From positions 22,727-86,726 of the forward strand of contig CAYZGK010000002.1 of assembly GCA_964478025.1 (NCBI GenBank): a DNA stretch of 64,000 nucleotides, given 5' to 3'. The translations under genes were made by a program, and so were the position numbers. The notes beneath the pieces are model-generated. The model did not search any database. It saw only the letters and a program-made list of their open reading frames with translations, and had not been told where the DNA came from. Below, piece after piece: positions 1,877 through 58,356 of the stretch. The DNA comes from an uncultured Christensenella sp. (GTDB lineage: Bacteria; Bacillota; Clostridia; Christensenellales; UBA3700). How positions within the stretch are numbered: position 1 is the stretch's first letter; each line of letters starts with the position of its first letter.

Positions 1877-3292
1877 TTATATTTCTCTTCCTATTAAATA
1901 CAAGAAAGCTACTGCGGGAATTCTATATAATTTTGTGTTTTTTCTTTCACTAATTCCAAAATCATCAATGTTTTTTGTTATTACAAATTCCGGTGTATCC
2001 TTCATTCCAAAAACTACAATTCCATCACTATCTTTAATCGTTGAATTATTTCTATTTTTTGCCTCTATATATTGAATATCTACATTTTTTTCTTGAACAG
2101 CAATATCTATCTCTTGACCTTTATTATTTCTTATATAACCAACTCTATAAAGTTCATCATCTAAACTATCAAAATAATCTCTTACGTGTTTGTAACTTAA
2201 AGTTTCCATTGCTGCAACAAACTCTGTTAAATTAGTTTCAATATCATTATTTCTTGTTACCGCACATCTTATTCCATTATCTAGAATATAAACTTTTCTT
2301 CTAGGTTTTAAAGGCTTTTTCCCTCCAACTTCTAATTGGTCTGAGATATAAATTAGATTTGCCTTTTCAAGTGCTGTTATATAGTTATTACAAGTTAGTC
2401 TATCTATATTTAATTCTTTAGATAACACTTCAGTATTTACAGTTGTTGATGTATTATAACAGAAAAATGTAAACAAGTTTGTTAGTGCGTCAATATTTTT
2501 TATATCAAAGCTTCGTGTAATATCTTGTTTTATGGCTTTTGTAATTATTTGATCTCTTATAAGTTTACTTATATAAGAAAAATCATCACTCTTTGAATAC
2601 TCAGGAAAACCACCTATTTTCATATATTTAATCATTTCTGAATATAGACTTCCTAGTTTCATTATTATTGAAGACTGCTCTTGTAAAGGTAAAGTATAAA
2701 TTTTAAACACATCGAATTTTGGAACATCTACCTCTTTGCCATTTAATACACAAAATTCATAAAATGACATTGTAGGTATTTTTATTGTGTAAAATCTTCC
2801 AGCACCACTATCTACACTATCATTTTCTAAATCAACTGATGCAGAGCCTGTAATCATTACTCTAACGTCTTTATTCAAATCAAAGAGTTTTTTTACATAG
2901 TTTTTCCATGATTTATCTTTTTGCGCTTCATCTATGAATAAGTAAAAATCATTTTTATCATAGATATACTTATTATAAACATCTAGAGCTTCCTTAATAG
3001 AAATACCATCATTTGGAAACTCATCCAAGGTATAAAACAAAATTCTTTGAGGATTTATTCCTTTATTTAAAAGTTCATTAATTATTTGAAAGACAATGGT
3101 AGATTTACCAACACGTCTTGGTCCAGACAATACTGGAAATCTTCTTATTTGATTAAAAAAGACCTTTTGTACTCTATCAAACTCTTTCCTTTTAAATTCA
3201 GGAACTAGACTTTTATCTACTTTTCCTGTTACCCACCAAGAGTTTTGCTCCTTTAAGTTCTTTAAAATATCGCTTTCTTTCAACAAAGACAT
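1877..3292 (-). CDS. stand-alone AAA+ ATPase with C-terminal DUF4143/PD-(D/E)xK-like domain (COG1373-type), paralog 1
   Basis: Motifs seen: Walker A GPRRVGKST, Walker B FIDEAQ, sensor ITGSAS, GAGRF, an HTH-like LTCNNYITALEKANLIYI, and C-terminal EIDIAV...YIEAKN. Confidence 0.85.
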   Translation of the reverse strand: MSLLKESDILKNLKEQNSWWVTGKVDKSLVPEFKRKEFDRVQKVFFNQIRRFPVLSGPRRVGKSTIVFQIINELLNKGINPQRILFYTLDEFPNDGISIKEALDVYNKYIYDKNDFYLFIDEAQKDKSWKNYVKKLFDLNKDVRVMITGSASVDLENDSVDSGAGRFYTIKIPTMSFYEFCVLNGKEVDVPKFDVFKIYTLPLQEQSSIIMKLGSLYSEMIKYMKIGGFPEYSKSDDFSYISKLIRDQIITKAIKQDITRSFDIKNIDALTNLFTFFCYNTSTTVNTEVLSKELNIDRLTCNNYITALEKANLIYISDQLEVGGKKPLKPRRKVYILDNGIRCAVTRNNDIETNLTEFVAAMETLSYKHVRDYFDSLDDELYRVGYIRNNKGQEIDIAVQEKNVDIQYIEAKNRNNSTIKDSDGIVVFGMKDTPEFVITKNIDDFGISERKNTKLYRIPAVAFLYLIGREI

Positions 3293-3313
3293 ATCTAACC
3301 TACCTTTTAGCTT

Positions 3314-3342
3314 ATTTTATCACTAAAACAATTCATTGTCTA
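3314..3342 (-). promoter_or_regulatory. putative sigma-A promoter of ATPase paralog 1
   Basis: Read on the minus strand: TAGACA (3342-3337), 17 nt, TAAAAT (3319-3314). The RBS AAGGTAGG precedes the ATG at 3292. Confidence 0.45.
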
Positions 3343-3348
3343 TAATTT

Positions 3349-3399
3349 TGTGGAGTCTACTCCACATTATTTACAATATTTTGTGGAGTCTATTCCACA
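3349..3399. promoter_or_regulatory. two copies of an 18-bp palindrome (operator-like), 33-bp period
   Basis: TGTGGAGTCTACTCCACA at 3349-3366 has perfect 8-bp arms. TGTGGAGTCTATTCCACA at 3382-3399 has one arm mismatch. Both copies share the TTT 5' flank. The proximal copy ends 6 bp from the predicted -35. Confidence 0.6.
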
Positions 3400-3421
3400 T
3401 AGTTTATGTTTTTCCAATAAA

Positions 3422-3450
3422 AAAAGTGACACTTTAATAGCATCACTTTT
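3422..3450 (-). terminator. probable ilvE terminator
   Basis: AAAAGTGA (3422-3429) pairs with TCACTTTT (3443-3450) around a 13-nt loop. A T-run follows on the minus strand. The stem is AT-rich, so support is moderate. Confidence 0.5.
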
Positions 3451-3473
3451 AATTTATTGTCTTTTATTTAGTA

Positions 3474-4535
3474 TTAGTTAACTTTTGTTACCCAACCAAA
3501 TGGATCTGGTTTTGTTCTATTTTGGATACCAGTAATTTCGTCATATAAGAATTGAGTAATTTTACCCATCTTTTGATCGTTAATTATAATATCTTTTCCT
3601 TTATATCCAAGAACGCCAACTGGAGAAATAACAGCTGCTGTACCAGAACCAAAGGCTTCATTTAATCTACCCTCATTTGCAGCTTTAATAACTTCATCCA
3701 TAGAAATTCTTCTTTCTTCAACAGGCATATTGTGAGCCTTTAATACTTGGATACATGAATTTCTTGTAATACCTGGCAAAATTGATCCTACAAGAGCTGG
3801 AGTTACAACAACACCATCAATAACGAAGAACATATTCATAGAACCAACTTCTTCTACATATTTGTGTTCAGCTGCATCTAACCATAGACATTGATCATAA
3901 CCTAATGAATTAGCTTTTTCACCACCCATTAATGAACAAGCATAGTTACCTGCACATTTAGCTTCACCTGTACCACCAATAGTTGCACGTGTATAATAAT
4001 CTTCAACTAAAATCTTTGTTGGCTCTAATCCATGAGCATAGTATGAACCAACTGGAGATAGAATAATAAAGAACTTATAAATCTTTGAAGCATGAACTCC
4101 TAATTGTTCTTGATCAGCAATCAATGTTGGTCTAATGTATAAAGCAGTACCTGGAGCTGTAGGAATCCAACTTTCTTCAAGTTTTAATAAATCAAATAAT
4201 GCAGCCTTTACTTTTGCTGAATCAAATTCAGGCATACACATTCTCTTTGCAGAATTATTCATTCTTATAAAGTTGTCATCAATTCTAAATACTGTAATTT
4301 CACCTTTATCGTTCTTATATGCTTTAGCTCCTTCAAAAATAGCTTGAGCATAATGTAAAACGTTTGATGCTGGTGACATTGCAAATGGTTGGAAAGGAAC
4401 AATTTCAGGTTCTCCCCATGCACCATTCTTGTATTCCATAAGAAGCATGTGATCTGTGAAATACTTACCAAATCCTAGTTTAGTAAAATCTGGCTTTTCT
4501 TTACGTTGTTTAACTAATGTTGTTTTTGTTGCCAT
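3474..4535 (-). CDS. ilvE: branched-chain amino acid aminotransferase
   Basis: 353 aa. N-terminal FGKYFTDHM and the class IV aminotransferase pattern (YIRP, GTGEAK.AGNY) are typical of long-form IlvE. Confidence 0.9.
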   Translation of the reverse strand: MATKTTLVKQRKEKPDFTKLGFGKYFTDHMLLMEYKNGAWGEPEIVPFQPFAMSPASNVLHYAQAIFEGAKAYKNDKGEITVFRIDDNFIRMNNSAKRMCMPEFDSAKVKAALFDLLKLEESWIPTAPGTALYIRPTLIADQEQLGVHASKIYKFFIILSPVGSYYAHGLEPTKILVEDYYTRATIGGTGEAKCAGNYACSLMGGEKANSLGYDQCLWLDAAEHKYVEEVGSMNMFFVIDGVVVTPALVGSILPGITRNSCIQVLKAHNMPVEERRISMDEVIKAANEGRLNEAFGSGTAAVISPVGVLGYKGKDIIINDQKMGKITQFLYDEITGIQNRTKPDPFGWVTKVN

Positions 4536-4536
4536 T

Positions 4537-6383: not shown

Positions 6384-6558
6384 ATTTAAAATTCTCCTAT
6401 GACGCGTTTTTGCCGCAGTCTAAATATTATTATATTTATATATTAATATTTTCTCAACTTAAAATTATTAATAATTTGTTTAATTCAACATTAAACCACG
6501 AAAAATCAAACAAAAACTAATATTTTTTGCTATAAATTATCTTTATTTCATGTAATTT

Positions 6559-7911
6559 TTAAATGAAAACTTTCTCAAGTTCTTCTTCCTTTTCGCATTC
6601 TTTTTCAAATACTGTAAACATCAAAATCATAAATAATTGATAAGGAAGTGGACAAAAATCTCCTGGATTGACGAGTGCTAATAACTCAAAACCTATAAAT
6701 GATAACATTAAAGCAGATGTAAACTTATAGTGACGTTTTCTAAACAAATTTACTCTAAATAAAAATTGATAAACATAAGCTATAATACCAACACTGCCTA
6801 AACTTCCAATAACCTGGAATGGTGTTGAGTGATACCAATACATTGCACCCTTCTTTGGATAGTAATATTCACCATACGCACCTAATCCTTTACCGAATAT
6901 AGGACTTTCTTTAAAACACTCAATTGCATAATTAAATAAACCAAATCTAGCCTCTCCACTTCTTACCTTTAACATGGACACAATTTTATCAAACTTAACA
7001 GCAATTAAAACAACTATACCTGTAAGCATAATCGTTAAAAGTATACTCATAATTATCTTTAAGTTTTTATCATTTGTTTTATAAATGTAAATCATATAAA
7101 GTGGAGACATAACAAGGCCCATAATAATTCCACCACGAGATAATGTACCAAAAAGTGCAATAACTTCAAGCGCACCTAAAAGCAATGCTCTAATCGGTTT
7201 TTCTTCTCTTCGCATATAGTAAAACGCAAAAGGTATCGTATAGAATAAATTTGCGGATAAATTGTTACCCATTTGAAGTTTGTTATTAAAACTTGAAAAA
7301 TCTGTTATAAGTAATTCAAAATTCTCCACATAGAATAATGCTAAAATAAGCACTAAAAACATTCCATAAAAAACCATTGTCTTAGTTAAATTTAAAACAT
7401 AATCAGCTTTAAAATCTATATACGTTCTAAACAAAACATATAATATAACAAGTCCAATTCCAAGACCAAAGACATAATAAAGTGCTGTTAATTGGAAATA
7501 TTCCTCTGCACTTATACTAAATAGCCCACCAAATGTTACAGCGATAGCAACAGCACTTGTTGGGAAAATCATTTTTGAACAATTTAGTTTATGTGGAAAC
7601 CTTACAAAGTGTGTTATCAAACTTGCAATAATAAATATACCAGCAGGCCATAATTTAACCCAATAATCAAAGCTTGCATATTTTCTTAAAACAATTGCAG
7701 TAAATAGTAAAAATGGAAGCAATGGCTTCATAAAGTCATCAATCAATATTAAATCTAAGCAAATAATACTAAATAAGAATATTGCTGCAACATAATTAAA
7801 ACCAAAAGCATAAAATACAAATGTAAAGAATACACAAACAATATTGTAATACTTTGACTCCAAAAATTCTTTAACATCTAAGTAATTTATTTTACTACTA
7901 ATTGCTTTCAT
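6559..7911 (-). CDS. O-antigen ligase (Wzy_C) family polytopic membrane protein
   Basis: 450 aa with many TM helices. The LSRGGIIMG loop motif and the late GKGLGAYG motif resemble the O-antigen ligase/polymerase family. Confidence 0.6.
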   Translation of the reverse strand: MKAISSKINYLDVKEFLESKYYNIVCVFFTFVFYAFGFNYVAAIFLFSIICLDLILIDDFMKPLLPFLLFTAIVLRKYASFDYWVKLWPAGIFIIASLITHFVRFPHKLNCSKMIFPTSAVAIAVTFGGLFSISAEEYFQLTALYYVFGLGIGLVILYVLFRTYIDFKADYVLNLTKTMVFYGMFLVLILALFYVENFELLITDFSSFNNKLQMGNNLSANLFYTIPFAFYYMRREEKPIRALLLGALEVIALFGTLSRGGIIMGLVMSPLYMIYIYKTNDKNLKIIMSILLTIMLTGIVVLIAVKFDKIVSMLKVRSGEARFGLFNYAIECFKESPIFGKGLGAYGEYYYPKKGAMYWYHSTPFQVIGSLGSVGIIAYVYQFLFRVNLFRKRHYKFTSALMLSFIGFELLALVNPGDFCPLPYQLFMILMFTVFEKECEKEEELEKVFI

Positions 7912-8052: not shown

Positions 8053-9120
8053 TTAATTACAATCAACACTTATTACATCTTTTTTTAAAATCTTTTTTCT
8101 ACATAAGTAATCTACGATTATAGTTAATGCAATTTCGATAACTGTAACAATAATAAGTGTAAGCCAACCTTTAGTAAAGTATGAAAATACATCTAAATAT
8201 TCGTACAATTCACCAGCTTGTAGATAAAACAAAGAAAATAATCCAAATAAAATTTTATTACTTACACCAATGGAATTAGCAATATAGAAAATGCTTCTTG
8301 TTACAAAATACGTTATCACTGTCAAAGAAATAGACATTTTTCTATTTTTTATTAACATTGTTAATTTTGCAAAATTCATCCAAAATAACATAGATAGTAT
8401 TATCGTCACAAACTTTGGCAAAAATACTATTTCTAACGCACTTTTTTCAAAAAAGCCATCTTCACCATACAATAAAAATTTTGCTGCGCTATCAGACCAT
8501 CCCATTATAAACGGAATAACCATTGTAAGTAGTAGATATAAAGTTGATATTAAATATAAAAAAACATTTTTACCAAAAAATACATTTTTTCGGTTGTTAG
8601 AAGAAATTAATATATTTTTTAAAGAATCGTTTATATCTAAATTAAACACTTCAAAAGCCAAAGTTATAGCAAGAATAGGTAAAACTAGCGATAGTGCTTT
8701 AAATACTACAACCATTACATAACTACCCTGATGACTTAAATCAAACGTTTGTTGATGCGTAGTTAAGTAGTCCACCGAAAATGTGTTATTTTCAATCAAA
8801 AAATCATAATATAGATATTCTTTTTCATAATCATAATTAGGAACTATAATCACACCATCTGGCAAATCTCCACTCTGTCCATCAAGATAATCCAATATTT
8901 GTTTATAGAATTCTCTTTGTTCTATATATTCAACTCTAAGCACAACTTTATCTTCGTTAGATAATTCTTCTTTTTCATGTAAAGGAAACGAAAATGCATA
9001 AATCAAGACTATACTAAAAAAAACAATAAAAAATAACAACCACAACAAAAAGATGTCTTTATTCCTTATTGTTTTATTCATTTCTAAATATAAAGTCGTT
9101 TTAACTGCAGATTCTCTCAT
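8053..9120 (-). CDS. hypothetical polytopic membrane protein (ABC-2-permease-like topology)
   Basis: 355 aa: an N-terminal TM, an approximately 100-aa extracytoplasmic loop, then about 5 TM helices. No ATPase partner is adjacent and I recognise no motif. Confidence 0.45.
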   Translation of the reverse strand: MRESAVKTTLYLEMNKTIRNKDIFLLWLLFFIVFFSIVLIYAFSFPLHEKEELSNEDKVVLRVEYIEQREFYKQILDYLDGQSGDLPDGVIIVPNYDYEKEYLYYDFLIENNTFSVDYLTTHQQTFDLSHQGSYVMVVVFKALSLVLPILAITLAFEVFNLDINDSLKNILISSNNRKNVFFGKNVFLYLISTLYLLLTMVIPFIMGWSDSAAKFLLYGEDGFFEKSALEIVFLPKFVTIILSMLFWMNFAKLTMLIKNRKMSISLTVITYFVTRSIFYIANSIGVSNKILFGLFSLFYLQAGELYEYLDVFSYFTKGWLTLIIVTVIEIALTIIVDYLCRKKILKKDVISVDCN

Positions 9121-14736: not shown

Positions 14737-15414
14737 TTAATCATTTACTTTCCAGTAACCACCTTTTTTTGCGCCAATACGATCAATAATATTTCTTTCT
14801 TTTAATAATTTTAAATTTTTCTTAACACCCTGTTCAGACAAATTTGATTCAATCATTAATTGATTAATTGTAATATTTGGATTGTTTCTAATTGCAGCTA
14901 CAATTATATCTTGAGATTTATTAAGTTTTTGGTATACTTTTTTGTTTACTTTATTGTCTACTATTTCAAATGAATTTACATTTATCTTATTAAATGGGAT
15001 TGTTACAATGATTCTATTCTTTTCTATTTTTATAGATTCCTTACCATACTTACCAATGATTTTAGGAACACCACGTCCAGAACGTTCACTAATTCTTAAT
15101 TGTAAAAATATAGATGCAAGAATCTCATTTACCGGTATACTTGCGCCATTATAAAATCCTTCTATATCTTGATTAAAAGCTAGTCCACCATGTGATAATA
15201 TTTCAATTCTATCAGTAAATATAGAAATTTGAGGGCCATTTAATGTCAACCATTTATTATGCAACACAGCGTTAACAATCGCTTCATTATACGCTTTTAT
15301 ATCGAATAAAGAAGTCTCTTTTCGCTCTTCTTTTCTCAAACATATTATTTGTAAGGTCACTGTAAATGTCACTGTAAATGTCACTGTAAAAGCAGATTCA
15401 TCTTTTACAACCAA
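14737..15414 (-). pseudogene. N-terminally truncated AlbA_2/HATPase_c_4-type putative DNA-binding ATPase-like regulator
   Basis: Only the C-terminal half of the family is present: IVNAVLHNKW, ILSHGGL, ERSGRGVPKI and a C-terminal wHTH. There is no ATG or RBS. The frame begins in a 12-bp tandem repeat, 13 nt after the stop of the upstream permease. Confidence 0.5.
15356..15391. repeat. 12-bp tandem repeat x3 (GTCACTGTAAAT)
   Basis: The three copies are at 15356-15367, 15368-15379 and 15380-15391; the last copy ends in A. In frame they translate to FTVTFTVTFTVT. Confidence 0.9.
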
Positions 15415-18114: not shown

Positions 18115-21100
18115 CTAGAATGTAGCTTTATCTTCTATTTTATTTCTTCTTGAAGTTATCTCTTCTTTATCTTTATTTATTGATTTAATTTCTTTAATTT
18201 TTTGATTCATCCAAATAAGTGCTGCAATTTCTATACCTAATATAAATGTTAGCACTACAATACCTATTATTTGTGAATTAATAAGTGCAGCACCTAACAT
18301 TACAAGTGGTCCTAAAACTACAGAGTTCGCTGTAACTTTCTTGTTTTTTGATGAAATATCATAGAAATCAACACCAGTTATTACAACAAGCATACCACCT
18401 AGAACGTCTAAGAATAATAGTAAAATTATAAGCCAAGTTAAATTTGTTTCCTTATCATGTTGATTTGCTACAAATGTAATTGTGCCAAGTGAGCTTACAT
18501 CAAATGACATATAACCATCCTTAAATGTTATTTGGTCATTATATATTGTTTTACCACTATTATCTACATACATAACAGCAACGCCATCTCTTCCTTTTAA
18601 CTCATTAGGTATAGCCATCTTTACTGTATATGTTCCAGTAAATTCTTCTTTTGTTGCACTATTATAGATATCAATATTATAGTTTAAAACTAGTTCTTGC
18701 TCATTTTCTATAACTAAATATTCATTTTCACTATTAACTTTTTTAATTTCAATAATTGTTAAAGCATCAAAATCACCTGTGGCTGTTATTTGTGCTTCAA
18801 CATCTGTGTTATTAACTGCAATTTTAGATATAGATACATAAACAGTTACATCAAAATTTTTCACAATAAATGAACCATCTGATTGTTGAACATCTAGTGT
18901 TCTATTTCCATTAGATTCTTTTACAGATATTAGTCCTGCAGTATAGCTACTATTTGTTGAACTTATATCTAAAACATTTATCTTTTGACCATATTCATAA
19001 TCAGATTCTTGTTGATGAGTATCATTTTGTATAATTTTTAAATGCAAGAATGATGGTCTATTTGGATCCTTTTCAATCTTATATCCTAAATTAATGTAAA
19101 CCATTCCATCATCATGATAACAATTAATAGCCGTTTTATCTAAGTCATCACCAGATATTTTATTTCCATTTTCATCACGTATAAATGTTACTCTATCACC
19201 TATAACATCACTTAGATTTTCTTTTATTTTTCCTTCAAGTGTACGAATAGTTGTATTTGCTTTACATAAAATAGCCTTATTTTGTTCTTCTCCATTTATA
19301 GATATATAAAGAAGCATATCAGAAGTTTCAGAAATGGCAAATGATGCTGATACTATTTTACATGTAGCAGATACAGCTCCTCTTTGTGTAGTTGCAATAA
19401 TTGTGGCTTTGCCTAAAGCCAATATTCTAACATTACCTTCATTATCTACAGTACAAACGTCCGTATTAGAACTTGTCCATGTTGCTGTTGTATAATTTTC
19501 AGGATTAATTGTCGCACTTAATTTATATGTTTTTCCAATATAATCAGACAAATATACTTCTTGCTTATTTAAAGTTATCTTTAATTCTCCCCATGCAGCA
19601 AAAATAGTATGGTTATCATTATCAACATCCCAATTAGATATAGACTCACCATCACTATTTGTAAGTTCACCACTTCCACTTGCCGCTGGATTATACCAAT
19701 ATCTAAATACATGGCCATCCCAAATTGGAACTTCTATACTATAACTTTGTCCATAAGTTAATGTTATCTCTTTACTACTTATTGTTCCACCAAGATTTTC
19801 AGCCATTCCAAGATTTAAAATAATTGTATAAGTCTTTGCTTGCCAATTTGCAGTTATTTCAATATTTTCTGCATATTCAAAAGATGAAGTCATAACGCCA
19901 TTTTCATCTGTTATGACAACACTATTATAAGACCAACCTGTAAAGTTATAACCAGTCTTTGTTGGCACATCAAATGTGATATTACTTGTTTTATACACAA
20001 CATTTTTTGAAGTATTTGCAATAGTCATATCACTTTCAGTTTTATAAGTAACAACAAATATTGCTGCTTCAAAATAAGGATTTAAAGTTTTATCCCCCCA
20101 ATACCATGTGCATTGCAAAACACCATCTTTGATTATAGGAGTGCTCTCATCGTCTAAATACCAATATTTAAAATCATAACCTAACTTTTCAGCCTTAGGA
20201 ACAGTAGCTGTAGAATCCTTTAATGAAGACTCACTATATACAACTTGAACAGTCTCTTCTCTGTCTTTAAAAGATATCGTATAAGTTTTATTTGTCATAT
20301 ATGCAAATACATTAATATCTTTTTCATATGTATAAGGCTTTAACATTAAACAGTCATTGTCGGTAATCAAATTTCCATCATACATCCAACCCGCAAATTC
20401 GCTATTTGCATCAGTTCCCGTATAACCTTGATATAATTGTGCTTTTTCACCATATTTTACAGTTTGGGTTTTATTTGGATCACTATCATCTAAATCTCTA
20501 TAAGTAATTGTATATCTTTTCCAGTCCTGTTTTGCAGTAAGTGTAATATTTTCACTCCATGTATAATCTACAATCATATTACCATTTTCATCAGAGACTT
20601 GAGTATCTTCATAATACCAGCCTAAAAATTCTTTGTGCTCATCTGGCGTAATCGTTGCAAGTGTTACTCTTGAATTGTAATATACTTCAACAGTATCAGT
20701 TAAACCATCATAAGAGATTGTATATTTAGGAATTGCTGTCCAATGAGCAGTAATAGTTATAGCCTCTTGATATTTAAATGTTTCAAGAGTTTTTCCATCA
20801 CTTCCTGTAATTTGAGTATTATTAGTATCATCATACCAACCATCAAAAGTATAATGCTCATATGTTGGAACTTCTAATTGAAAACCAGCTTGTGTATTAA
20901 AAGGAATATCTATGCTTGTATTTGTTGTAGTGCCGCCATTTGCATTATAAGTTACTGTATATTCTATGGCTTCATATTTTGCAATAATGGTTTTATTTTC
21001 AAGATAAGTCCAACTTGTAAGCATATTGCCATTTTCATCAGCAAATTTTGTACCATCGCCTAAATACCAACCCAATCTATTATATCCGGCTTTAGTTGGT

Positions 21101-21942
21101 TCAGAACCTACATCGACTGTAGAATTATAATCAACATACGTCAAGCCAAGAGAATTACCACTTTCATCTACTTTAGAAATTGTAAACATTCTTACTTTTG
21201 TTACTGGGCTTACATTTATTGATAAAATTTCATTTTCACTTGAATCAGTAATTACATCACCATAAATTTCATTATCTTTTAATGTAGAAACTGTTAAAAC
21301 ACTGTTATTATATTCCTTAACTTGCCAGCCATAAAATTCATAACCTGTAGGTGGTGTATAACTACTTGATGTGGCTATTGGTAATGCATTACTAAAAGGT
21401 TCATTAAAACTTAATGTAGTAGTATTTCCGGTAGTTATGTTATCAAAAGGAATTTCTTCTTTTGTATCGTCCCCATCTTCATGTAGATCAAATGTTATGG
21501 TTAATGATTTACTACTCATGTCAGTAAATTTTGGATATAAAGTTAACTCTGTACCCATTGAAGAGTCATATGTAAAATTTAGTATAACTCCATCTCCATC
21601 ATAAATCTGTGTTGTGAATGTATTTTCTAAGTACCACCCTTCAAACTTTTGATTTTTTATAATTGGAGTATATGCGTTCCTATTACCAGTGATATTACTT
21701 ATTTGTATTTCAAGAGAATTATTAAAAATAGTTGGGTTGCTATCTAAAACAACATCCCCGTTAACTGGGTCATTATAACCAATATATTCAAAATTTGTGC
21801 AAGATGACATATCAAAACTAACACTAACAGTTGTTTCTTCTGCATTAACGTTTGTATTTACAAATGTAAGAGTAAATGACATGACTATAATTGATAAACA
21901 TAATGCGGTAAATAAATAGAAACTTTTCTTTAGTTTTAACAT
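18115..21942 (-). CDS. giant surface protein with Listeria-Bacteroides (Flg_new) repeats, a Big_2 domain and a C-terminal membrane anchor
   Basis: 1275 aa with an N-terminal signal peptide. At least 9 repeats end in G(Y/H)xFxGW(Y). An Ig-like segment (ATWTSSNTDVCTVDNEGNV) is present. Two C-terminal TM helices are followed by a K/E-rich tail. Confidence 0.8.
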   Translation of the reverse strand: MLKLKKSFYLFTALCLSIIVMSFTLTFVNTNVNAEETTVSVSFDMSSCTNFEYIGYNDPVNGDVVLDSNPTIFNNSLEIQISNITGNRNAYTPIIKNQKFEGWYLENTFTTQIYDGDGVILNFTYDSSMGTELTLYPKFTDMSSKSLTITFDLHEDGDDTKEEIPFDNITTGNTTTLSFNEPFSNALPIATSSSYTPPTGYEFYGWQVKEYNNSVLTVSTLKDNEIYGDVITDSSENEILSINVSPVTKVRMFTISKVDESGNSLGLTYVDYNSTVDVGSEPTKAGYNRLGWYLGDGTKFADENGNMLTSWTYLENKTIIAKYEAIEYTVTYNANGGTTTNTSIDIPFNTQAGFQLEVPTYEHYTFDGWYDDTNNTQITGSDGKTLETFKYQEAITITAHWTAIPKYTISYDGLTDTVEVYYNSRVTLATITPDEHKEFLGWYYEDTQVSDENGNMIVDYTWSENITLTAKQDWKRYTITYRDLDDSDPNKTQTVKYGEKAQLYQGYTGTDANSEFAGWMYDGNLITDNDCLMLKPYTYEKDINVFAYMTNKTYTISFKDREETVQVVYSESSLKDSTATVPKAEKLGYDFKYWYLDDESTPIIKDGVLQCTWYWGDKTLNPYFEAAIFVVTYKTESDMTIANTSKNVVYKTSNITFDVPTKTGYNFTGWSYNSVVITDENGVMTSSFEYAENIEITANWQAKTYTIILNLGMAENLGGTISSKEITLTYGQSYSIEVPIWDGHVFRYWYNPAASGSGELTNSDGESISNWDVDNDNHTIFAAWGELKITLNKQEVYLSDYIGKTYKLSATINPENYTTATWTSSNTDVCTVDNEGNVRILALGKATIIATTQRGAVSATCKIVSASFAISETSDMLLYISINGEEQNKAILCKANTTIRTLEGKIKENLSDVIGDRVTFIRDENGNKISGDDLDKTAINCYHDDGMVYINLGYKIEKDPNRPSFLHLKIIQNDTHQQESDYEYGQKINVLDISSTNSSYTAGLISVKESNGNRTLDVQQSDGSFIVKNFDVTVYVSISKIAVNNTDVEAQITATGDFDALTIIEIKKVNSENEYLVIENEQELVLNYNIDIYNSATKEEFTGTYTVKMAIPNELKGRDGVAVMYVDNSGKTIYNDQITFKDGYMSFDVSSLGTITFVANQHDKETNLTWLIILLLFLDVLGGMLVVITGVDFYDISSKNKKVTANSVVLGPLVMLGAALINSQIIGIVVLTFILGIEIAALIWMNQKIKEIKSINKDKEEITSRRNKIEDKATF

Positions 21943-22083: not shown

Positions 22084-22198
22084 ATAATTGACCCATATTT
22101 TCCGTTATAACTGACCCAAATTTCTTATGAAAATTGACCGATATTTTTAATTAAAACTGACCGATATTTTGACAAATTTTTGACCGATATTTTTTAAA
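22084..22198. repeat. array of five 23-bp direct repeats (core TGACC[C/G]A[T/A]ATTT)
   Basis: TGACC starts at 22089, 22112, 22135, 22158 and 22181, an exact 23-bp period. Copies 3-5 share TGACCGATATTTT. No ORF of meaningful length lies on either strand. Confidence 0.9.
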
Positions 22199-37770: not shown

Positions 37771-37812
37771 ATATGCCTCCTTTTGCTTCTTACAAATTAA
37801 TAGTAAACCTTG

Positions 37813-37836
37813 GAGTTAACTCTAAGTTAAGAGTTA
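37813..37836. promoter_or_regulatory. overlapping palindromes upstream of the MerR gene (candidate MerR operator)
   Basis: GAGTTAACTC at 37813-37822 is a 10-bp palindrome. TAACTCT-N6-AGAGTTA spans 37817-37836. Confidence 0.45.
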
Positions 37837-37864: not shown

Positions 37865-37901
37865 TTCGGCTAATTTTGGGTAATTATAAAAATTAGCCGA
37901 A
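37865..37901. promoter_or_regulatory. 13-bp-arm inverted repeat abutting the -35 of ATPase paralog 2
   Basis: TTCGGCTAATTTT (37865-37877) and AAAATTAGCCGAA (37889-37901) form perfect arms with an 11-nt spacer. The repeat ends 7 bp before the -35. Confidence 0.6.
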
Positions 37902-37908: not shown

Positions 37909-37937
37909 TTGATTTAAATTTATTATTTTCGTATAAT
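37909..37937 (+). promoter_or_regulatory. promoter of ATPase paralog 2
   Basis: TTGATT (37909-37914), 17 nt, TATAAT (37932-37937). The RBS AGAGGA precedes the ATG at 37963. Confidence 0.65.
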
Positions 37938-37962: not shown

Positions 37963-39192
37963 ATGAAATACTTAAAAAGACATATTGAAGACATAGTTTT
38001 ACAGGCAAGCGAATCTTACTCTGCAATACTATTAACTGGTCCACGTCAATCAGGAAAAACCACTATGCTTTTAGAACTTTCAAAAAGAGAAAATAAAAAT
38101 AGAGAGTATGTCACGCTTGATGATTTATCCAATCGTGAAATTGCAAAAAAAGACCCTGCTCTATTTTTACAAATTCATAAACCTCCCGTTTTGATTGATG
38201 AAGTTCAATATGCGCCAGAATTATTTACTTATATAAAAATATATATAGATACTCACCATAATCCCGGTGACTTTTGGATGACAGGATCTCAAATTTATCG
38301 TTTAATGAAAGGCGTACAGGAATCCCTTGCCGGAAGAGTTGCCTTGCTTCATATGTCTCCAATGTCTCAAAGAGAAATTGAAGGTTATCCTCTAAAGCCA
38401 TTTAAAGTAAATTTAGAAGAGTTATTAAAGGAAACTAATATAATAAAACCAAAAACTACACCAGAAGTTTTTCAAAATATTTGGCGTGGCTCTATGCCAG
38501 GTATAATAAGCGGTGAATATAAGAATAGAAACCTATATTACTCTTCTTATATCTCAACATATATAGAACGTGATGTTAATGATATCGCAAAAAATATTAA
38601 CGCACTAAAATTTAATAATTTTATAATTTCACTTGCTGCTAGAACATCACAATTATTAAATTATAGCGCCCTTGCAGAAGATGCGGATATTGACATCCAA
38701 ACGGCAAAAAACTGGCTAAATATATTAGAGACACTTGGAATTATATTCTTACTACACCCATACTCTAACAATACACTAAAACGAACTATAAAAACACCAA
38801 AAGTGTATTTCTATGATACTGGACTTGTTTGCTATTTAACAAAATGGTCATCGCCAGAGGTCGCAGAATACGGTGCAATGAATGGTGCACTACTTGAAAA
38901 TTATACAGTTTCCGAAATAGTAAAAGGTTATCAAAATGCTGGACTTGAACCTTATTTATATTTTTATAGAGATAAAGATAATAAAGAGATTGATGTTGTT
39001 CTAGAAGGAGATGGAAAACTTTTTCCTATAGAGATAAAGAAAACAGCAATACCTGACAAAAAAATAGTTAAAACATTTAATGTTATAGATAAATCACCTT
39101 TACAAAAAGGAACAGGTGCCGTACTTTGCATGGCAGAAAAAGTTAACGCTTTTGATAAAGACAATCTAATTATTCCTATCTGGATGATTTAA
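37963..39192 (+). CDS. stand-alone AAA+ ATPase with C-terminal DUF4143/PD-(D/E)xK-like domain, paralog 2
   Basis: 409 aa. Motifs seen: Walker A GPRQSGKTT, Walker B LIDEVQ, MTGSQ, LAGRV, PKVYFYDTGL, and C-terminal EIDVVLE...FPIEIKK. Confidence 0.85.
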   Translation: MKYLKRHIEDIVLQASESYSAILLTGPRQSGKTTMLLELSKRENKNREYVTLDDLSNREIAKKDPALFLQIHKPPVLIDEVQYAPELFTYIKIYIDTHHNPGDFWMTGSQIYRLMKGVQESLAGRVALLHMSPMSQREIEGYPLKPFKVNLEELLKETNIIKPKTTPEVFQNIWRGSMPGIISGEYKNRNLYYSSYISTYIERDVNDIAKNINALKFNNFIISLAARTSQLLNYSALAEDADIDIQTAKNWLNILETLGIIFLLHPYSNNTLKRTIKTPKVYFYDTGLVCYLTKWSSPEVAEYGAMNGALLENYTVSEIVKGYQNAGLEPYLYFYRDKDNKEIDVVLEGDGKLFPIEIKKTAIPDKKIVKTFNVIDKSPLQKGTGAVLCMAEKVNAFDKDNLIIPIWMI

Positions 39193-39202
39193 ATAATAAA
39201 AA

Positions 39203-41920
<2,718 letters not shown>

Positions 41921-50145: not shown

Positions 50146-50187
50146 AAAAAAATAGCCACCTTCAAATTAGAAAGTGGCTATTTTTTA
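50146..50187. terminator. bidirectional terminator (phoR 3' end)
   Basis: A 9-bp stem pairs AATAGCCAC (50151-50159) with GTGGCTATT (50174-50182). An A-run and a T-run flank it. Confidence 0.75.
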
Positions 50188-52534: not shown

Positions 52535-52554
52535 AAAACTCCTTCGATTTATAA

Positions 52555-53245: not shown

Positions 53246-54025
53246 TCAACCGAATCTTCCGGTTATATAATTTTCTGTTCTCTTATCATTAGGCGATGAG
53301 AATATTTTTTCAGTATCACCAAACTCTACTAAATCACCAAGCAAGAAAAATGCAGTTTTATCTGCAACACGAGTTGCTTGTTGCATATTATGAGTAACTA
53401 TAACAATTGTTATGTCTTTCTTTAATTCCTCTATAAGCTCTTCAATCTTACCTGTAGATATTGGATCTAGGGCTGATGTGGGTTCATCCATTAATAGAAT
53501 TTTAGGGTCAGCTGCAAGAGCTCTTGCAATACACAAACGTTGCTGTTGACCACCAGATAGACCTAAAGCTGATTTATCTAATCTATCTTTAAGTTCATCC
53601 CACATACTAGCTCCCTTTAAGGATTTTTCTACAATTTCATCAAGCTCAGATTTTTTATGTATTCCAAGTGTTCTTGGACCATATGCAACATTGTCATAAA
53701 CACTCATTGGGAATGGATTTGGCTTTTGAAAAACCATTCCTACATTTCTTCTTAGTTCATTAATATCTATCTTTCCATAAATATCTACATCTCCTATTTT
53801 AAAATCTCCTTCAATTTTACATCCAGCAACTAAATCGTTCATTCTATTAAAGCATTTTAAAAATGTTGATTTACCACATCCAGATGGTCCAATGAAGGCT
53901 GTAACTTTTCTTTCTGGTATTTCAATGCTTATATCTTTTAAAGCTTGAAAATCTCCATACCAAAGTTTTGCATTATGGACAGATATATTTTGACCAAGAT
54001 TTAACTGTTCTGTACTTTTTTTCAT
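53246..54025 (-). CDS. pstB: phosphate ABC transporter ATP-binding protein
   Basis: 259 aa. Motifs seen: Walker [10 protein letters not shown], signature LSGGQQQR, Walker [12 protein letters not shown]. Confidence 0.95.
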
Positions 54026-55797
54026 TTCTTACTTCCTCTTAATTTTTTATCTAATTTATTTGAGATTATTCCTGCTAATAGATTTAGTACTAAAACTATA
54101 ACTAGTAGTACAAAAGCTGTAGCATATGCTTCATCTAAATATTTACCCTCGCCTGCAAGTCTATATAAAGCAACTGCAAGTGTTGCGCCACCATCAAGTG
54201 GACTTGTTGGTGTTTCCATAATTGTTGAGCCCATTGTATACATAAATGGAGCTGACTCAGAGACAACTCTTCCCATTGCTAGAATTATTGCTGATGTTAT
54301 ACCTGGAAGTGCACTTGGCAAAACTACTTTAAATATAGTTCTAACTTTACCAGCACCTAACGCATAGCTTCCTTCTCGAAGAGAATCAGGGACAGATTTT
54401 AAACTTTCCTCTGTTGATCTAACGATTGTTGGAAGGAGCATTATCGAGATTGTAAAACTACCTGCTAGAATTGACATTTTATTTCCAAACCATACAACGA
54501 ATGTTACCATACCAAATAAGGCATAAACTATGGATGGAATACCACTTAATATATCTATTGCTGATCTTATAACTCTAACTATCTTGCTATCTTTCTTTGT
54601 ATATTCATTTAAGAATATTGCCGTAAATACACCAATTGGAACAGCAATAATAAGACTTATTACAACTGTCATAAATGTAGTTACTATAGATGGGAATATA
54701 CTTATATCTCCAGCCATTTCATATTTACCAAATAAGAAATTTAATGATACATGTGGAATACCTTTAATGCATACAAATAAAATTATAGCTACAAGACCTA
54801 TAAGTCCTATCAAAGCACATACATATGAGAAAATTTTACCAATAAACTCAATTTTAATTGCTTGTTTTATTTTTTCTAATATTTCAAAATTATGTTTTCT
54901 TTTTCCCTTAACATTCTTTGCTTTTCCTGTTATTAAGCCTAGCAATACATTAACAATAAATATAAATACTAAAAGGACAACGCCAGTTGCTATTAAAGCG
55001 CCTAATTGAACTTCTCCTGCATATCCCATCTCCATAACAATATTAGCAGTAAGTACTCTAAAACTTTTAAATATTCCTTCTGGATAGTTTACTGCGTTAC
55101 CAGCAACCATAATAACCGCCATTGTTTCGCCGACTGCTCTTCCTATACCTAAAATTATTGAGGCAACTATTCCTGATTTTGCAGCTGGAACCACTGTTCC
55201 AAAAACAGCCTGTTCATGTGTAGCACCAAGTGCTCTTGCACCTTCATAATAATTCTCTGGCACTGCGTCTATACTCGTTTTAGATAAAGATACAACTGTT
55301 GGAAGTATCATAAAACCTAGAACAAGCGATACCGCAAGAAGACCACTACCACTTCCATTTTCTGAATAATTTCCAAGAATAGGTAGTAAAATTCTCATTC
55401 CAAAGAAGCCATAAATAACTGATGGTATTCCTGCTAATAAATTAATTATAGAACTAAATATTTTCTTTATTTTCTTAGGACAAAACTTAGAAATGAATAC
55501 TGCTGTAAAAAATCCTAATATTCCGCCAAACGCAACAGCTCCTATTGTTGCTGTTAGCGTTCCTATTATCATTTTAAATACGCCGTACTCACCAGTAAGT
55601 TCTGCATCGTATGTATCATTTGCACTAGGATACCAATTTTTTCCAAATACGAAATCAAAAAATCCTATTTTTCTAAATGCTGGAACACTTTGTGCAATTA
55701 AGAACGCAAAGATTGCTACTACCGCAACAATACATATTAATGCGGTAATAGCAAATATAATTTTGAAAAATTTTTCTTTAGTCTTTAATTGATTCAT
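54022..55797 (-). CDS. fused phosphate ABC transporter permease PstC-PstA
   Basis: 591 aa. Two tandem permease modules each carry an EAA-like loop ([13 protein letters not shown] and [13 protein letters not shown]). This is one continuous ORF. Confidence 0.88.
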
Positions 55798-55799
55798 AA

Positions 55800-56669
55800 C
55801 TATTTAATTTCACTAAACTTTGTAACTTTTCCTGTATAAATATTTTTAAGTATTTCTGCAGTTACATTTGAAATTTGATCATTATCTTTGTTAACAATTA
55901 CTGCTACTGCATCTAAACAAATTGTTGTTTCTGTATAAGCATCATTCTTTGAAGATGAACTAGCAACACCAATAACTGTACCATTTGTATCACCCTTAGC
56001 AGCTGTTCTTCCTTCGCTTGATCCGTTAAAGCTAATTGTAAATTTAACGTTTGCAACTTTATCTCCAAGTAATGCTTTATAGTTTGCAATTAATTTTTCC
56101 ATTAAATCTGTCATTGATGTAGAACCCTTTACTACAACATCACCACTTAGCGCTGTTGCTGGAACAGTGTATTCACTACGGCTTGAGAAATCACTTGGTA
56201 GAATACCATGAGTTGCTGTAATACCATCTTTTGCTGTTGAAGACATACAATAATTAAAGAAGTCTTGAGCTGCTGGTTGTAAAGTAACACTATTATTTGT
56301 TAATAATAAGAATGGTCTTTGAATCTTATATTCTCCTGAACGAACATTTTCTTCAGTTGCCTCTACTCCATTTACCTTTAAAGCCTTAACGCTATCATCA
56401 ACTGATGCTAAGGAAATATAACCAATAGCTGTCTTTGTTGTAGCAACTTTTTCACGAACGTTAGCTGTAGAACTATACTCTTCCTTATCTGAGATTAATT
56501 CACTAGCTTGAAGTCCAACGAACTTATCAAAAGCTTCTCTTGTTCCACTTGCTGCATCTCTACATACAACTAGAATGTTTTTCTCTGTATTGCTAGAACA
56601 ACTAGCAAAAGTAAATAATGTAACAACTGCCATAATACCTGCAATTATCATTAATAATTTCTTTTTCAT
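55800..56669 (-). CDS. pstS: phosphate-binding lipoprotein PstS
   Basis: The ATG at 56669 follows AAAAGGAG. The signal and lipobox read MKKKLLMIIAGIMAVVTLFTFASC. The sequence is PBP-like, and this is the first gene of the pst operon. Confidence 0.85.
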   Translation of the reverse strand: MKKKLLMIIAGIMAVVTLFTFASCSSNTEKNILVVCRDAASGTREAFDKFVGLQASELISDKEEYSSTANVREKVATTKTAIGYISLASVDDSVKALKVNGVEATEENVRSGEYKIQRPFLLLTNNSVTLQPAAQDFFNYCMSSTAKDGITATHGILPSDFSSRSEYTVPATALSGDVVVKGSTSMTDLMEKLIANYKALLGDKVANVKFTISFNGSSEGRTAAKGDTNGTVIGVASSSSKNDAYTETTICLDAVAVIVNKDNDQISNVTAEILKNIYTGKVTKFSEIK

Positions 56670-56753
56670 ATTTTTTTTCTCCTTTTTTTTCGTGATATAA
56701 AATTGTTTTTTCATATCTACACTTAAAATATATACAAAACAAAAATTATTAAC

Positions 56754-56792
56754 TGACAAACTTTAGTAAAACAATTGTAATGTTTTTGTAAA
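56754..56792 (-). promoter_or_regulatory. Pho-box array (four hexamers, 11-bp period) upstream of pstS
   Basis: The minus strand reads TTTACA-N5-ATTACA-N5-TTTACT-N5-TTGTCA (plus-strand starts 56787, 56776, 56765, 56754). This matches the Bacillus-type PhoP box TT(A/T/C)ACA-N5 repeats. Confidence 0.7.
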
Positions 56793-56830
56793 GTGACCTA
56801 TTATTTCTACTTATTTATTTAAAACAATAA

Positions 56831-56859
56831 TTGACTTAATAAAATACTTTTGCTATTAT
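56831..56859 (+). promoter_or_regulatory. promoter of ATPase paralog 4
   Basis: TTGACT (56831-56836), 17 nt, TATTAT (56854-56859). Confidence 0.65.
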
Positions 56860-56869
56860 AAATTTGTCA

Positions 56870-56895
56870 AATCGTAATTAGACTAATCGTGATTA
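56870..56895 (+). repeat. 11-nt direct repeat pair in the 5' leader of ATPase paralog 4
   Basis: AATCGTAATTA at 56870-56880 and AATCGTGATTA at 56885-56895 are 15 bp apart. They lie between the predicted transcription start and the RBS. Confidence 0.5.
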
Positions 56896-56925
56896 TACAA
56901 AATTAAACAAAGGAGAATCATACAA

Positions 56926-58356
56926 ATGTTTATAGGAAGGGAAAATGAATTAAAATTTCTTAATGATGCATATTTTTCTAATAAAGCTGAATTCATTATT
57001 TTATATGGTAGACGCCGTATAGGAAAAACTGAACTTTTAAATGAGTTCGCTAAAGGTAAAAAATGCATTTTTTATACTTGTAGAGAATATACTGACAAAA
57101 TTCAATTACAATCATTTACAAACAAAATTCATTCCTATAATATTTCAGAGTTTAAATATGTTGATTGTTTTTCAGATTGGGAAAAAGCTTTTTCTTCTGT
57201 CTTACATATTGATTCTAACGAAAAAAAATTAATAATAATAGATGAATTTCCTTATGCTTGCAAGGTTAATAAAAGTATACCTTCTATATTGCAAGTTTTA
57301 TGGGATGAAAAATTACGTCATGAAAATGTTATGATTGTTCTTTGTGGAAGTGCTATGAGTTTTATCGAAAAAGACTTACTTGCAGAAAAAAATCCACTGT
57401 ATGGAAGAACTACAGGAATTTATAAAATGAATCCACTTCCCTATCTTGATGCTTTTAAGTTCTTCCCTAATTTTTCAGATGAAGATAAATTATTAGCTTA
57501 TTCCATTTTAGGTGGAGTTCCTCAGTATTTAAGACAATTTAATGATAAATTATCTTTAGAAGATAATATAAAACAAAATATATTAAAAAAAGGCTGCTCT
57601 CTTTATAACGAGGTAGAGTTTTTATTAAAACAAGAATTACGTGAAACTTCTGTTTACAATACAATTGTAGAAGCCATTGCTCTTGGTAATAATTCTTTTA
57701 ATGATATTTTAAACAAAACACACCTAGAGAAAAGCAAACTAAGTGTCTATCTTAAAAGTTTAATAGATTTATCTATCATAGAAAAAGAAACACCTGCTTT
57801 ATCTTCCAATAAAGATATACACAATATATCAAAAGGCAATTATGTCCTTGTAGATAATTTCTTCCGTTTTTGGTATGCTTTTGCATATCCTAATTTTACG
57901 GATCTTGAAAATGATGATATAGATGGTGTATGGGAAAATGATATAAAAAATAACCTACATAATTTTGCGGCTCGACCTTTTGAGAAAATTTGCTTGGATT
58001 ATTTATATATTCTAAATAAAAATAAAAAATTACCATTTAGAATCCATAATGCTTCTAGATACTGGGGGAAAACCCTTCAACTAATCAATGGTAAAAAAGA
58101 ATCTATTAATCTTGAAATAGATATCCTTGCACCAGATGAAAAAAAGGAAAACTTTATTTTTGGGGAATGCAAATTCACAAAAGAAGCCTTTGATATGCAA
58201 CAACTAAAAAAATTGCAAAATAAAGTATTTTTAAATGGAAATATATATTATTACCTATTCTCTCTTTCTGGTTTTACTAGTTCAATAAAAGAATATGCAT
58301 TAAATAATAAAAATTTAATTTTAATAGAAACAAAAGACATTATAAATGTGAATTAA
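56926..58356 (+). CDS. stand-alone archaeal-type AAA ATPase with C-terminal DUF234/PD-(D/E)xK-like domain (COG1672-type), paralog 4
   Basis: 476 aa. Motifs seen: FIGRENEL start, Walker A GRRRIGKTE, Walker B IIDEFP, LCGSAMS, PLYGRTT, and C-terminal LEIDILAP...IFGECKF. Confidence 0.85.
   Translation: MFIGRENELKFLNDAYFSNKAEFIILYGRRRIGKTELLNEFAKGKKCIFYTCREYTDKIQLQSFTNKIHSYNISEFKYVDCFSDWEKAFSSVLHIDSNEKKLIIIDEFPYACKVNKSIPSILQVLWDEKLRHENVMIVLCGSAMSFIEKDLLAEKNPLYGRTTGIYKMNPLPYLDAFKFFPNFSDEDKLLAYSILGGVPQYLRQFNDKLSLEDNIKQNILKKGCSLYNEVEFLLKQELRETSVYNTIVEAIALGNNSFNDILNKTHLEKSKLSVYLKSLIDLSIIEKETPALSSNKDIHNISKGNYVLVDNFFRFWYAFAYPNFTDLENDDIDGVWENDIKNNLHNFAARPFEKICLDYLYILNKNKKLPFRIHNASRYWGKTLQLINGKKESINLEIDILAPDEKKENFIFGECKFTKEAFDMQQLKKLQNKVFLNGNIYYYLFSLSGFTSSIKEYALNNKNLILIETKDIINVN

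Follow-up and report, generated by a model that had tools for sequence, protein, structure and literature searches.

PDC-S01 and PDC-S27 belong to a catalogue of candidate phage-defence systems predicted by "guilt by embedding", from genes that sometimes lie within BREX, DISARM or type I restriction-modification loci (10.1101/2024.01.29.577857). Each is described as an ATPase joined to a PD-(D/E)xK domain and as awaiting validation; about 39,500 PDC-S01 and about 8,100 PDC-S27 loci were counted in 47,747 genomes, and PDC-S01 is reported to rank fourth in frequency among "defence" systems across prokaryotes (PMC12988326). PDC-S01 is also the commonest single locus in rumen genomes (PMC13356809). 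The C-terminal domains concerned, DUF4143 and DUF234, were placed in the PD-(D/E)xK superfamily in 2012 with their function given as "unknown" (Steczkiewicz 2012, PMC3424549). Here we describe four PDC-S01 and PDC-S27 genes, P1 to P4, in a stretch of 64,000 nucleotides from an uncultured Christensenella sp. (contig CAYZGK010000002.1, positions 22,727 to 86,726; hereafter the window). Conserved DNA repeats, different for each subfamily, accompany the promoters of these genes. This promoter-repeat architecture is the new element and the most informative feature of these genes: an initial annotation of the window lacked it, and the literature searched makes no mention of promoter-proximal repeat arrays for PDC-S01 or PDC-S27. 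The protein architecture and the inference of a defence role are prior art (10.1101/2024.01.29.577857, PMC12988326) and not new.

The initial annotation had picked out four open reading frames (ORFs) with a common three-part layout of AAA+ ATPase, winged helix-turn-helix (wHTH) and C-terminal acidic/(D/E)xK motif pair, and had named COG1373 and COG1672 as their families. All four ORFs lie at the coordinates it gave, and the translations contain each of the strings that it quoted for the two Walker motifs and for the acidic/(D/E)xK pair. The three-part architecture holds, and so do the family assignments, with COG1373 as AAA_14 plus DUF4143 and COG1672 as ATPase_2 plus DUF234. P1 (1877..3292, minus strand, 471 aa) contains AAA_14 at residues 54-181 (3e-30, 105 bits) and DUF4143 at 256-412 (1e-21, 77.7 bits), with Walker A GPRRVGKST, Walker B FIDEAQ and the nuclease motif EIDIAV..YIEAK. 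P2 (37963..39192, plus strand, 409 aa) contains AAA_14 at 20-139 (2e-30, 106 bits), DUF4143 at 202-360 (6e-48, 163 bits), a modelled wHTH at about 214-283 and the nuclease motif E312...E342-I-D344...E357-I-K359. For P3 (48597..49949, minus strand, 450 aa) the domains are AAA_14 at 19-153 (6e-25, 88 bits) and DUF4143 at 227-389 (2e-21, 76.6 bits), the key residues being K32 in Walker A, D94/E95 in Walker B and E344, E368-V-D370 and D385-V-K387 in the nuclease motif. P4 (56926..58356, plus strand, 476 aa) combines ATPase_2 at 2-204 (4e-24, 86.1 bits; a secondary AAA_14 match is also found), a wHTH at about 241-308 and DUF234 at 316-419 (8e-21, 74.9 bits), with the nuclease motif E353...E397-I-D399...E414-C-K416. 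Since these scores lie far above the gathering thresholds that we used as cut-offs (27 bits for AAA_14, 28.1 for DUF4143, 33.2 for ATPase_2 and 22.5 for DUF234), the common layout reflects homology and not chance.

An NCBIfam scan gave no specific model for any of the four proteins. A PADLOC search, which had been proposed as a check, gave full-length matches to PDC-S01 for P1 (PDLC04787, 6e-54), P2 (PDLC04790, 3.5e-105) and P3 (PDLC04792, 3e-171), and to PDC-S27 for P4 (PDLC04984, 2e-57). P1 to P4 are genuine members of these two very common candidate families; P1, P2 and P3 have the domain order and single-gene organisation of PDC-S01 and do not differ from it at the protein level. The description of the genes as four diverged paralogs overstates their kinship: with pairwise identities of 22-29% (over partial alignments) and matches to four different PADLOC profiles, they are four old subfamilies and not recent duplicates. 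The P3 subfamily alone comprises 758 clusters at 50% identity (E up to 1e-30). The window holds four family genes, versus none in about 1.1 Mb of related loci, and a tblastn search of it revealed no further family remnants.

The highest-scoring tandem repeat of the window lies upstream of P3 (49966..50132, read on the minus strand) and consists of four good copies and one degenerate copy of (A/T)TGAAAAGTTCC at a spacing of exactly 33 bp. Its promoter-proximal good copy supplies the -35 hexamer (TTGAAA) of a promoter-like site at 50013-49985 on the minus strand. Because the exact P3 motif (GAAAAGTTCC) is mostly absent upstream of homologues with 53-64% identity, we discovered that the core of the motif drifts (GAAAAGTGT, GAAAAGCGTG, GAATAAGTGG and others) with the 33-bp period retained. 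Metagenomic homologues in that identity range carry three to five copies of GAAAAGTGTA, GAAAAGCGTG, GAAAAG(T/C)GCG or GAATAAGTGG; those of Segatella hominis and Collinsella aerofaciens have four copies each; and a homologue from Vibrio coralliilyticus (Pseudomonadota), only 27% identical, has three palindromes of a different motif at about 33 bp. Periodic upstream repeats at 32-33 bp were found in 24 of 29 non-redundant P3-family regions; of 336 control windows taken at these loci, 2 had them, and shuffled sequences scored about 0.3. These arrays comprise three to five direct repeats with the core motif kept and the spacers diverged, and they occur in Bacillota, Bacteroidota and Actinomycetota, whether the gene is on a chromosome, a plasmid or an integrative conjugative element (ICE). 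Over all fetched loci, a sample biased towards the P3 family, periodic upstream repeats precede 46% of 50 non-redundant family genes versus 1.5% of 1261 control genes; the period is 33 bp in 17 genes, 32 bp in two and 23 bp in three.

The other three genes have repeats of their own. Two 18-bp palindromes of the form TGTGGAGTCTA(C/T)TCCACA, 33 bp apart (3349..3399), abut the -35 box of P1 and form a putative operator; they are unique in the window, where 0.02 matches are expected by chance, and are kept in conspecific alleles. The P1 promoter-like site itself (3314..3342, minus strand; TAGACA-17-TAAAAT with a TG extension) lies between a terminator-like hairpin of ilvE (3450-3422) upstream and the P1 ATG. 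P2 has two copies of TTCGRCTAATTT / TTCGGCTAATTT in inverted orientation, offset by 25 bp (37865..37901), just upstream of a promoter-like site at 37909-37937. We regard this inverted pair as a putative P2-family operator that could also be a hairpin terminator. The same TTCGRCTAATTT pair in the same geometry precedes a Treponema succinifaciens plasmid gene whose product is 43% identical to P2, one TTCGRCTAATTT copy lies upstream of a homologue with 75% identity (P0101), and there is just one unrelated match in 223 loci. For P4, two tandem sites of the type AAATCRYGATT, GTCAAATCGTAATTAGAC and (GAC)TAATCGTGATTATAC, lie 15 bp apart at 56866-56898 (plus strand), just after the -10 of a promoter-like site at 56831-56859 (plus strand; TTGACT-17-TATTAT with a TG extension), where they would form an operator over the transcription start. 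The same two-site arrangement right after the -10 is found in P4 homologues with 75%, 54% and 50% identity (L094, L229 and L230, respectively). Promoter-like hexamers are no commoner in the window than in shuffled sequence, so these promoter calls rest on position and on conservation in homologues.

Further arrangements were seen at other family loci. Another PDC-S01 subfamily, with Walker A G(A/P)K(W/F)CGKT, has upstream direct repeats at a 23-bp period: GCCAAAACACGGA x4 (L113, about 6400-6590), GCCAAATTCCCAA x3 (L125, about 300-505) and ACAATCTTGGGAATTTTT x2 (L100, about 8250-8435), and the L100 gene also has P4-type AATCGTGATT sites further upstream. At locus L114 (356-6350), three AAA_14/DUF4143 paralogs of different subfamilies stand in a row. 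A GGAAAAGCGTG-type motif, the same for all three, lies ahead of each, suggesting that they are regulated jointly or regulate one another.

Two features argue that the encoded protein binds the repeats: the motif core is kept while spacers and context change, and the gene is the sole co-traveller of the array. A period of 33 bp corresponds to three helical turns and would therefore place all sites on one face of the DNA, a phasing that suits cooperative assembly of an AAA+ oligomer. Our favoured interpretation, to which we give somewhat better than even chances, is that P1 to P4 are auto-regulated, stand-alone, ATP-dependent DNA-binding nucleases with a role in conflict or defence. Each protein begins with a AAA+ ATPase and lid that resemble those of ORC/Cdc6 and STAND proteins, continues with the wHTH and ends in a C-terminal domain with an intact PD-(D/E)xK nuclease motif. 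The promoter repeats would be its cognate binding sites, on which it would assemble cooperatively and in an ATP-dependent manner, and this binding would auto-regulate a potentially toxic nuclease. The role would most likely be the ATP-gated recognition and cleavage of invading phage, plasmid or ICE DNA. We infer this defence role, which is plausible and unproven, in keeping with the catalogue status of PDC-S01 and PDC-S27.

A more specific version, which we put forward only tentatively, is that the arrays are the recognition sites of sequence-specific, array-assembling ORC-like ATPase-nucleases. An oligomer would nucleate on phased repeats, at its own promoter at rest and on foreign DNA or a releasing signal upon invasion, and the fused nuclease would be activated by this ATP-dependent assembly. 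No defence system is known to act in this way. Were the idea correct, the sequence that precedes a PDC-S01 gene would directly reveal the DNA specificity of its protein. The repeats predict a DNA ligand for each subfamily, and a family that exists in annotation only becomes open to simple experiments.

AlphaFold models of P4 (predicted local distance difference test score, pLDDT, 87; predicted TM-score 0.81) and P2 (pLDDT 74) alike contain a P-loop alpha/beta domain, a lid made of helices, a winged helix of three helices plus a hairpin and a C-terminal alpha/beta domain. Foldseek searches of the Protein Data Bank (PDB) with full-length P2 and P4 matched, in order, the structural-genomics protein SSO1545 (2fna), ORC and Cdc6 subunits, and then Apaf-1, plant NLRs, Avs3, MalT, RuvB and RFC. 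The P4 model superposes on 2fna with an E value of 4.7e-10, a target-normalised TM-score of 0.65 and a root-mean-square deviation of 4.2 Å; 2fna, whose function is unknown, has 352 residues that make up the ATPase and winged-helix parts, to which P4 adds a 140-residue DUF234 nuclease-like domain. The Foldseek probability was 1.0 for ORC1-5, Cdc6 and archaeal Orc (2qby, 1fnn, 1w5t), and the AAA+, lid and C-terminal winged-helix order of Orc1/Cdc6-type initiators is seen in these matches and in both models. The models thus place the motor with the ORC/Cdc6 and STAND kind of AAA+ ATPase.

Archaeal orc1/cdc6 genes adjoin origins with repeated ORB elements that the encoded protein binds, an arrangement resembling that of each family gene beside its own array. 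The family differs in that its repeats are direct, with a 33-bp period, and lie over the promoter, in that no duplex-unwinding element accompanies them, and in that the protein carries an extra C-terminal nuclease domain. Initiators bind origins and load the helicase, and one essential copy is present per replicon, whereas these genes are multi-copy and dispensable, and a Pfam scan of P1 to P4 gave no Cdc6/ORC family match. Among STAND ATPases, the structural neighbours are Avs3 (8dgc), MalT (8bob), Apaf-1 and the NLRs. MalT binds direct-repeat arrays upstream of its target promoters, and the Avs anti-phage proteins couple an ATPase switch to a nuclease, in some cases an Mrr/REase-type effector. 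Unlike these, P1 to P4 have no C-terminal TPR, WD40 or LRR sensor, which leaves the winged helix as the sole candidate sensor, and their nuclease domain is C-terminal. They match AAA_14 or ATPase_2 and not NB-ARC or NACHT; the Pfam scan found neither sensor repeats nor STAND families in them, so that the likeness to STAND proteins is structural only.

The C-terminal domain is likely to have a PD-(D/E)xK fold, as judged from the P4 model in particular. There (pLDDT 82-96), a helix at 344-365 is followed by strands at 377-387, 390-403 and 409-416 and then by a further helix and strand, the second of the three strands bearing E397-I-D399 and the third E414-C-K416, as in the canonical PD-(D/E)xK layout. 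The motif itself is intact and, as its conservation indicates, the site is under selection. In the P3 family (39 sequences from four phyla, 27-82% identical), K32, D94/E95, E344, E368 and K387 are present in 39/39 sequences and D370 and E/D385 in 38/39; in the P4 family (46 sequences), E353, E397-I-D399 and E414-C-K416 are invariant; and E312, E342 and D344 (P2 numbering) are invariant across the P1, P2 and P3 subfamilies. The Walker motifs of P1, P2 and P3, GxxxxGK[ST] and hhDE, show the same invariance among homologues. When the C-terminal domains were scanned alone, the only matches, all sub-threshold, were to PD-(D/E)xK families: Mrr_cat (0.0026, with P4), NERD (0.18) and UPF0102 (0.03). 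These secondary matches, the invariant catalytic residues, the alpha-beta-beta-beta-alpha-beta topology of P4 and the 2012 listing (PMC3424549) all favour the restriction-endonuclease-like C-terminus that the initial annotation had proposed, and the conservation of its D..(D/E)xK residues among homologues, which it had made a test, is borne out.

A pairing of an AAA+ motor with a PD-(D/E)xK nuclease on DNA is also found in McrBC-type type IV systems, and the working principle may be similar for that reason. McrBC consists of two proteins, uses GTP and recognises modified bases through an N-terminal DNA-binding domain, whereas P1 to P4 are single polypeptides with an AAA+ domain of another clade and putative cognate sites at their own promoters.

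Several observations weigh against our favoured interpretation. On the protein side, the structural support differs between models: P4 shows the topology expected of a PD-(D/E)xK domain, and the model of P2 is of low quality at residues 350-383 and over its ExK strand (pLDDT about 45). The Foldseek searches are no test of the nuclease domain, because full-length matches are dominated by the ATPase. Sequence searches of the PDB gave nothing for P2 and a weak match to 2qen only for P4, and the DUF234 C-terminal profile gave spurious ribosomal-protein matches only, so the nuclease fold has no sequence anchor to a solved structure. On the DNA side, when we compared motif class with protein columns in the P3 family for co-variation, no region stood out, the motif classes coinciding with clades, and since three tandem paralogs at L114 share one motif, the binder need not be the adjacent protein. 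The position of the array varies by clade, overlapping the -35 or the -7 box in some and lying upstream of the core promoter in others, so repression is not the only possible reading. The P1 palindromes are backed by conspecific alleles only, and the locus sample, including the 50-gene count, leans towards the P3 family. Finally, one PDC-S01 and one PDC-S27 system introduced into E. coli B and challenged with T7, T5 and T4 did not belong to the four candidates, out of eight, that were reported as protective (10.1101/2024.09.26.614923), and we found no binding, ATPase, nuclease or defence activity for these proteins in the literature searched, where the initial annotation's statement that no function had been shown for this architecture holds. 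The genes should not be counted as validated immunity.

How the genes are distributed within the species and around it bears on what they do. P3 is present in 8/8 conspecific contigs that cover its site and P4 in 7/7. The window comes from a low-GC gut lineage of Christensenellales-type Clostridia. We compared 80 related species, the closest species representative being 83% identical in PstCA: none has a P3- or P4-like gene within 10 kb of the pst-pho operon, outside which synteny is wholly lost. P1 is missing from the conspecific contig L191, which encodes an identical IlvE protein; a deletion of about 1908-3409 has taken the palindromes, the promoter and the ORF and left the last 8 codons of P1. 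P2 is missing from the conspecific contig L202, with an identical AtpC, where what survives is the inverted repeat upstream, the relic of a promoter and, at the 3′ end, about 12 P2 codons in diverged form. These natural loss alleles show that the genes are dispensable within the species. The GC content at third codon positions (GC3) of P1 to P4 is typical of the genome (z-scores -0.45 to +0.88), which, together with the gene remnants in the empty alleles, identifies the four genes as ancestral long-term residents that can be lost. The initial annotation was right to call them accessory and not core, given the P1 and P2 deletions and the absence of P3 and P4 beside pst-pho in the related species. 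A picture of recent insertions into slots does not stand, as the empty alleles are deletions with remnants and GC3 is native; recent horizontal transfer is rejected for lack of a compositional signal.

A housekeeping function, in DNA repair, replication restart or the ordinary transcriptional regulation of host genes, would fit the fixation of P3 and P4 in all sampled conspecific contigs, the native codon composition and the strong conservation of the P2 subfamily (thousands of sequences at 75-78% identity). We consider it very improbable, as P1 and P2 are absent from conspecific strains and P3 and P4 from the syntenic site in the 80 related species, and as the repeat motifs occur within the window only at the genes' own promoters, so that no regulon is visible. 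In the same 75-78% range, the closest relatives of P2 outside the species make up a very large and compact group, in which some sequences bear the names Ruminococcus, Eubacterium or Clostridia; such uniformity is unusual for a supposed fast-evolving defence gene.

The loss alleles also bear on whether each gene might itself be a mobile element, a nuclease-driven homing or transposing cassette with the upstream repeats as its ends. A single gene with repeats recurs in unrelated contexts and the copy number of the repeats varies, with three copies at L101 and four at L102, near-identical conjugative-element loci of P3 homologues. We nevertheless give this idea hardly any weight: no inverted motif copy lies downstream, no target-site duplications are seen, and both empty alleles are imprecise deletions in which the final 8-12 codons remain, accompanied at the P2 site by the inverted repeat and promoter relic. 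An insertion sequence or transposon is likewise largely refuted, there being no terminal inverted repeats, target-site duplication or precise empty sites.

Somewhat less improbable, though still doubtful, is a selfish, addiction-like single-gene module, in which an auto-repressed toxic nuclease would persist on account of the cost of losing or misregulating it and bring the host no benefit. The putative operators over the promoters suggest tight autoregulation; many diverged copies occur per genome in an extremely abundant family (PMC12988326, PMC13356809); and toxin-antitoxin genes are neighbours, HipST in the window and PemK and RelE/HigA at homologue loci. However, loss is evidently tolerated, given the clean deletions of P1 and P2 in conspecific strains, and there is no antitoxin-like partner at 28 P3-family loci.

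The wider neighbourhoods of the family speak for stand-alone genes, as the initial annotation had supposed. Around 28 non-redundant P3-family loci, 362 neighbour ORFs fell into 355 clusters, with no conserved partner gene and another family member as the sole recurrent neighbour. P1 to P4 themselves lie between housekeeping operons with HipST as the only defence-like neighbour, and some homologues elsewhere adjoin defence-type genes. The P2 homologue P0101 (75% identity) lies 53 bp upstream of a gene for a DrmD-like helicase, with genes for a type III methyltransferase and for a variable TIR or SH3 protein alongside. A P3 homologue with 82% identity shares a conjugative element with another PDC-S01 gene and with genes for MobL, TraG, ArdC and an AbiLi-like ATPase, and a P4 homologue with 75% identity has a strain-variable left flank and a PemK toxin gene on its other side. 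One conjugative element, L100 (ENA ERZ27271039 k141_406270), encodes MobL, TraG, ArdC-MPTase and a giant protein of 3724 aa with MutS_I, Eco57I and helicase parts, and carries two PDC-S01 genes and an AbiLi-like ATPase gene in an apparent accessory or leading region.

Some of these contexts raise the possibility of a role in mobile-element biology, with ORC/Rep-like iteron binders that serve replication control, partition, stability or anti-defence and with the chromosomal copies as leftovers or domesticated forms. The arrays are iteron-like, with three to five direct repeats beside the gene at a period of 33 bp (three turns) or 23 bp (roughly two), and the fold resembles that of origin-DNA-bound Orc1/Cdc6 (2qby). 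Iteron Rep proteins and centromere-binding autoregulators, which have winged helices, recognise direct repeats set in tandem at intervals of whole turns, beside or over their own promoter, and repress themselves; unlike the P1 to P4 family, Rep proteins have neither an ATPase nor a nuclease domain. Homologues also lie beside a replication initiator and a recombinase (Moraxella), ParM (Vescimonas), type IV coupling proteins (Treponema, Acinetobacter) and, on a conjugative element, ArdC and MobL, and the negative heterologous anti-phage result in E. coli B points the same way. Against this, P1 to P4 lie between housekeeping operons without other mobile-element genes and with genome-typical GC3, neither an AT-rich unwinding element nor a partner gene is conserved, one would not expect a partition or initiator protein to have an invariant nuclease site, and a homologue is found on only 0.1-0.5% of plasmid records (61-377 of 72,556). 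We consider such a role unlikely, though less so than the other alternatives to an auto-regulated conflict or defence nuclease.

Family proteins are encoded by 8-13 of 50,697 phage records, nearly all of them unverified faecal virome scaffolds. Two array patterns searched against 2.9 million viral contigs gave 1 and 4 exact matches, one of which was another family gene, and the idea that phage-borne arrays are the targets finds no support there.

Turning to transcription units in the window, the initial annotation had made each gene a single-gene unit with its own promoter. This stands for P1, P2 and P4; P3 is insulated upstream and lacks a terminator downstream. P1 shares a bidirectional terminator hairpin (1822..1868; a 20-pair stem, then a T run) with the convergent degV. 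The neighbours of P2 and of P4 are on the opposite strand on both sides, and a terminator-like hairpin (58362..58386, plus strand) directly follows the P4 stop codon. Upstream of P3, the phoR terminator hairpin (50147..50186, minus strand; a stem and then a T run, formed by inverted repeat I4 with 20-nt arms that are 90% complementary) insulates the gene from the pho operon; downstream, no terminator was found between P3 and the BNR-repeat gene 66 bp away, so read-through from P3 into BNR is possible. The stop codon of P2 is 10 bp from that of the convergent atpC (39192-39203), again with no terminator detected between them, and the P2 and atp operon transcripts may therefore overlap in antisense.

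The "gene-decay patch" upstream of P2 (36930-37860) is the wreck of a MerR-flavodoxin-CMD-cupin-DXS-like operon, in which a MerR-type palindrome survives at about 37806-37835. The operon is intact at 4142-7414 of L202 where the window has it decayed, and by this comparison the window and L202 lineages have kept reciprocal halves of the ancestral arrangement. Near P4, the toxin-antitoxin module noted earlier is confirmed as a HipS/HipT pair: a split HipA kinase toxin module (60429-61729) with a Couple_hipA protein (HipS-like, 111 aa) and a HipA_C protein (HipT-like, 322 aa) whose genes overlap by 4 bp. PstC and PstA are fused into one protein of 591 aa (54022-55797) here and in about 65 related Christensenellales-type metagenome-assembled genomes (among loci L009-L088), and are encoded by two genes in more distant Lachnospiraceae, Tissierellia and Oscillospiraceae loci (L077-L088).

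Besides the P3 array, the sole other strong periodic repeat of the window is a 23-bp tandem repeat of 3.6 copies (TGACCCATATTTTTAATTAAAAC; 22089-22170) between dnaJ and the gene for a 1275-aa Flg_new/Big_2 surface protein (18115-21942). A perfect 12-bp tandem repeat of 2.9 copies (GTCACTGTAAAT) occupies 15356-15390, at the 5′ end of the ORF at 14737-15414.

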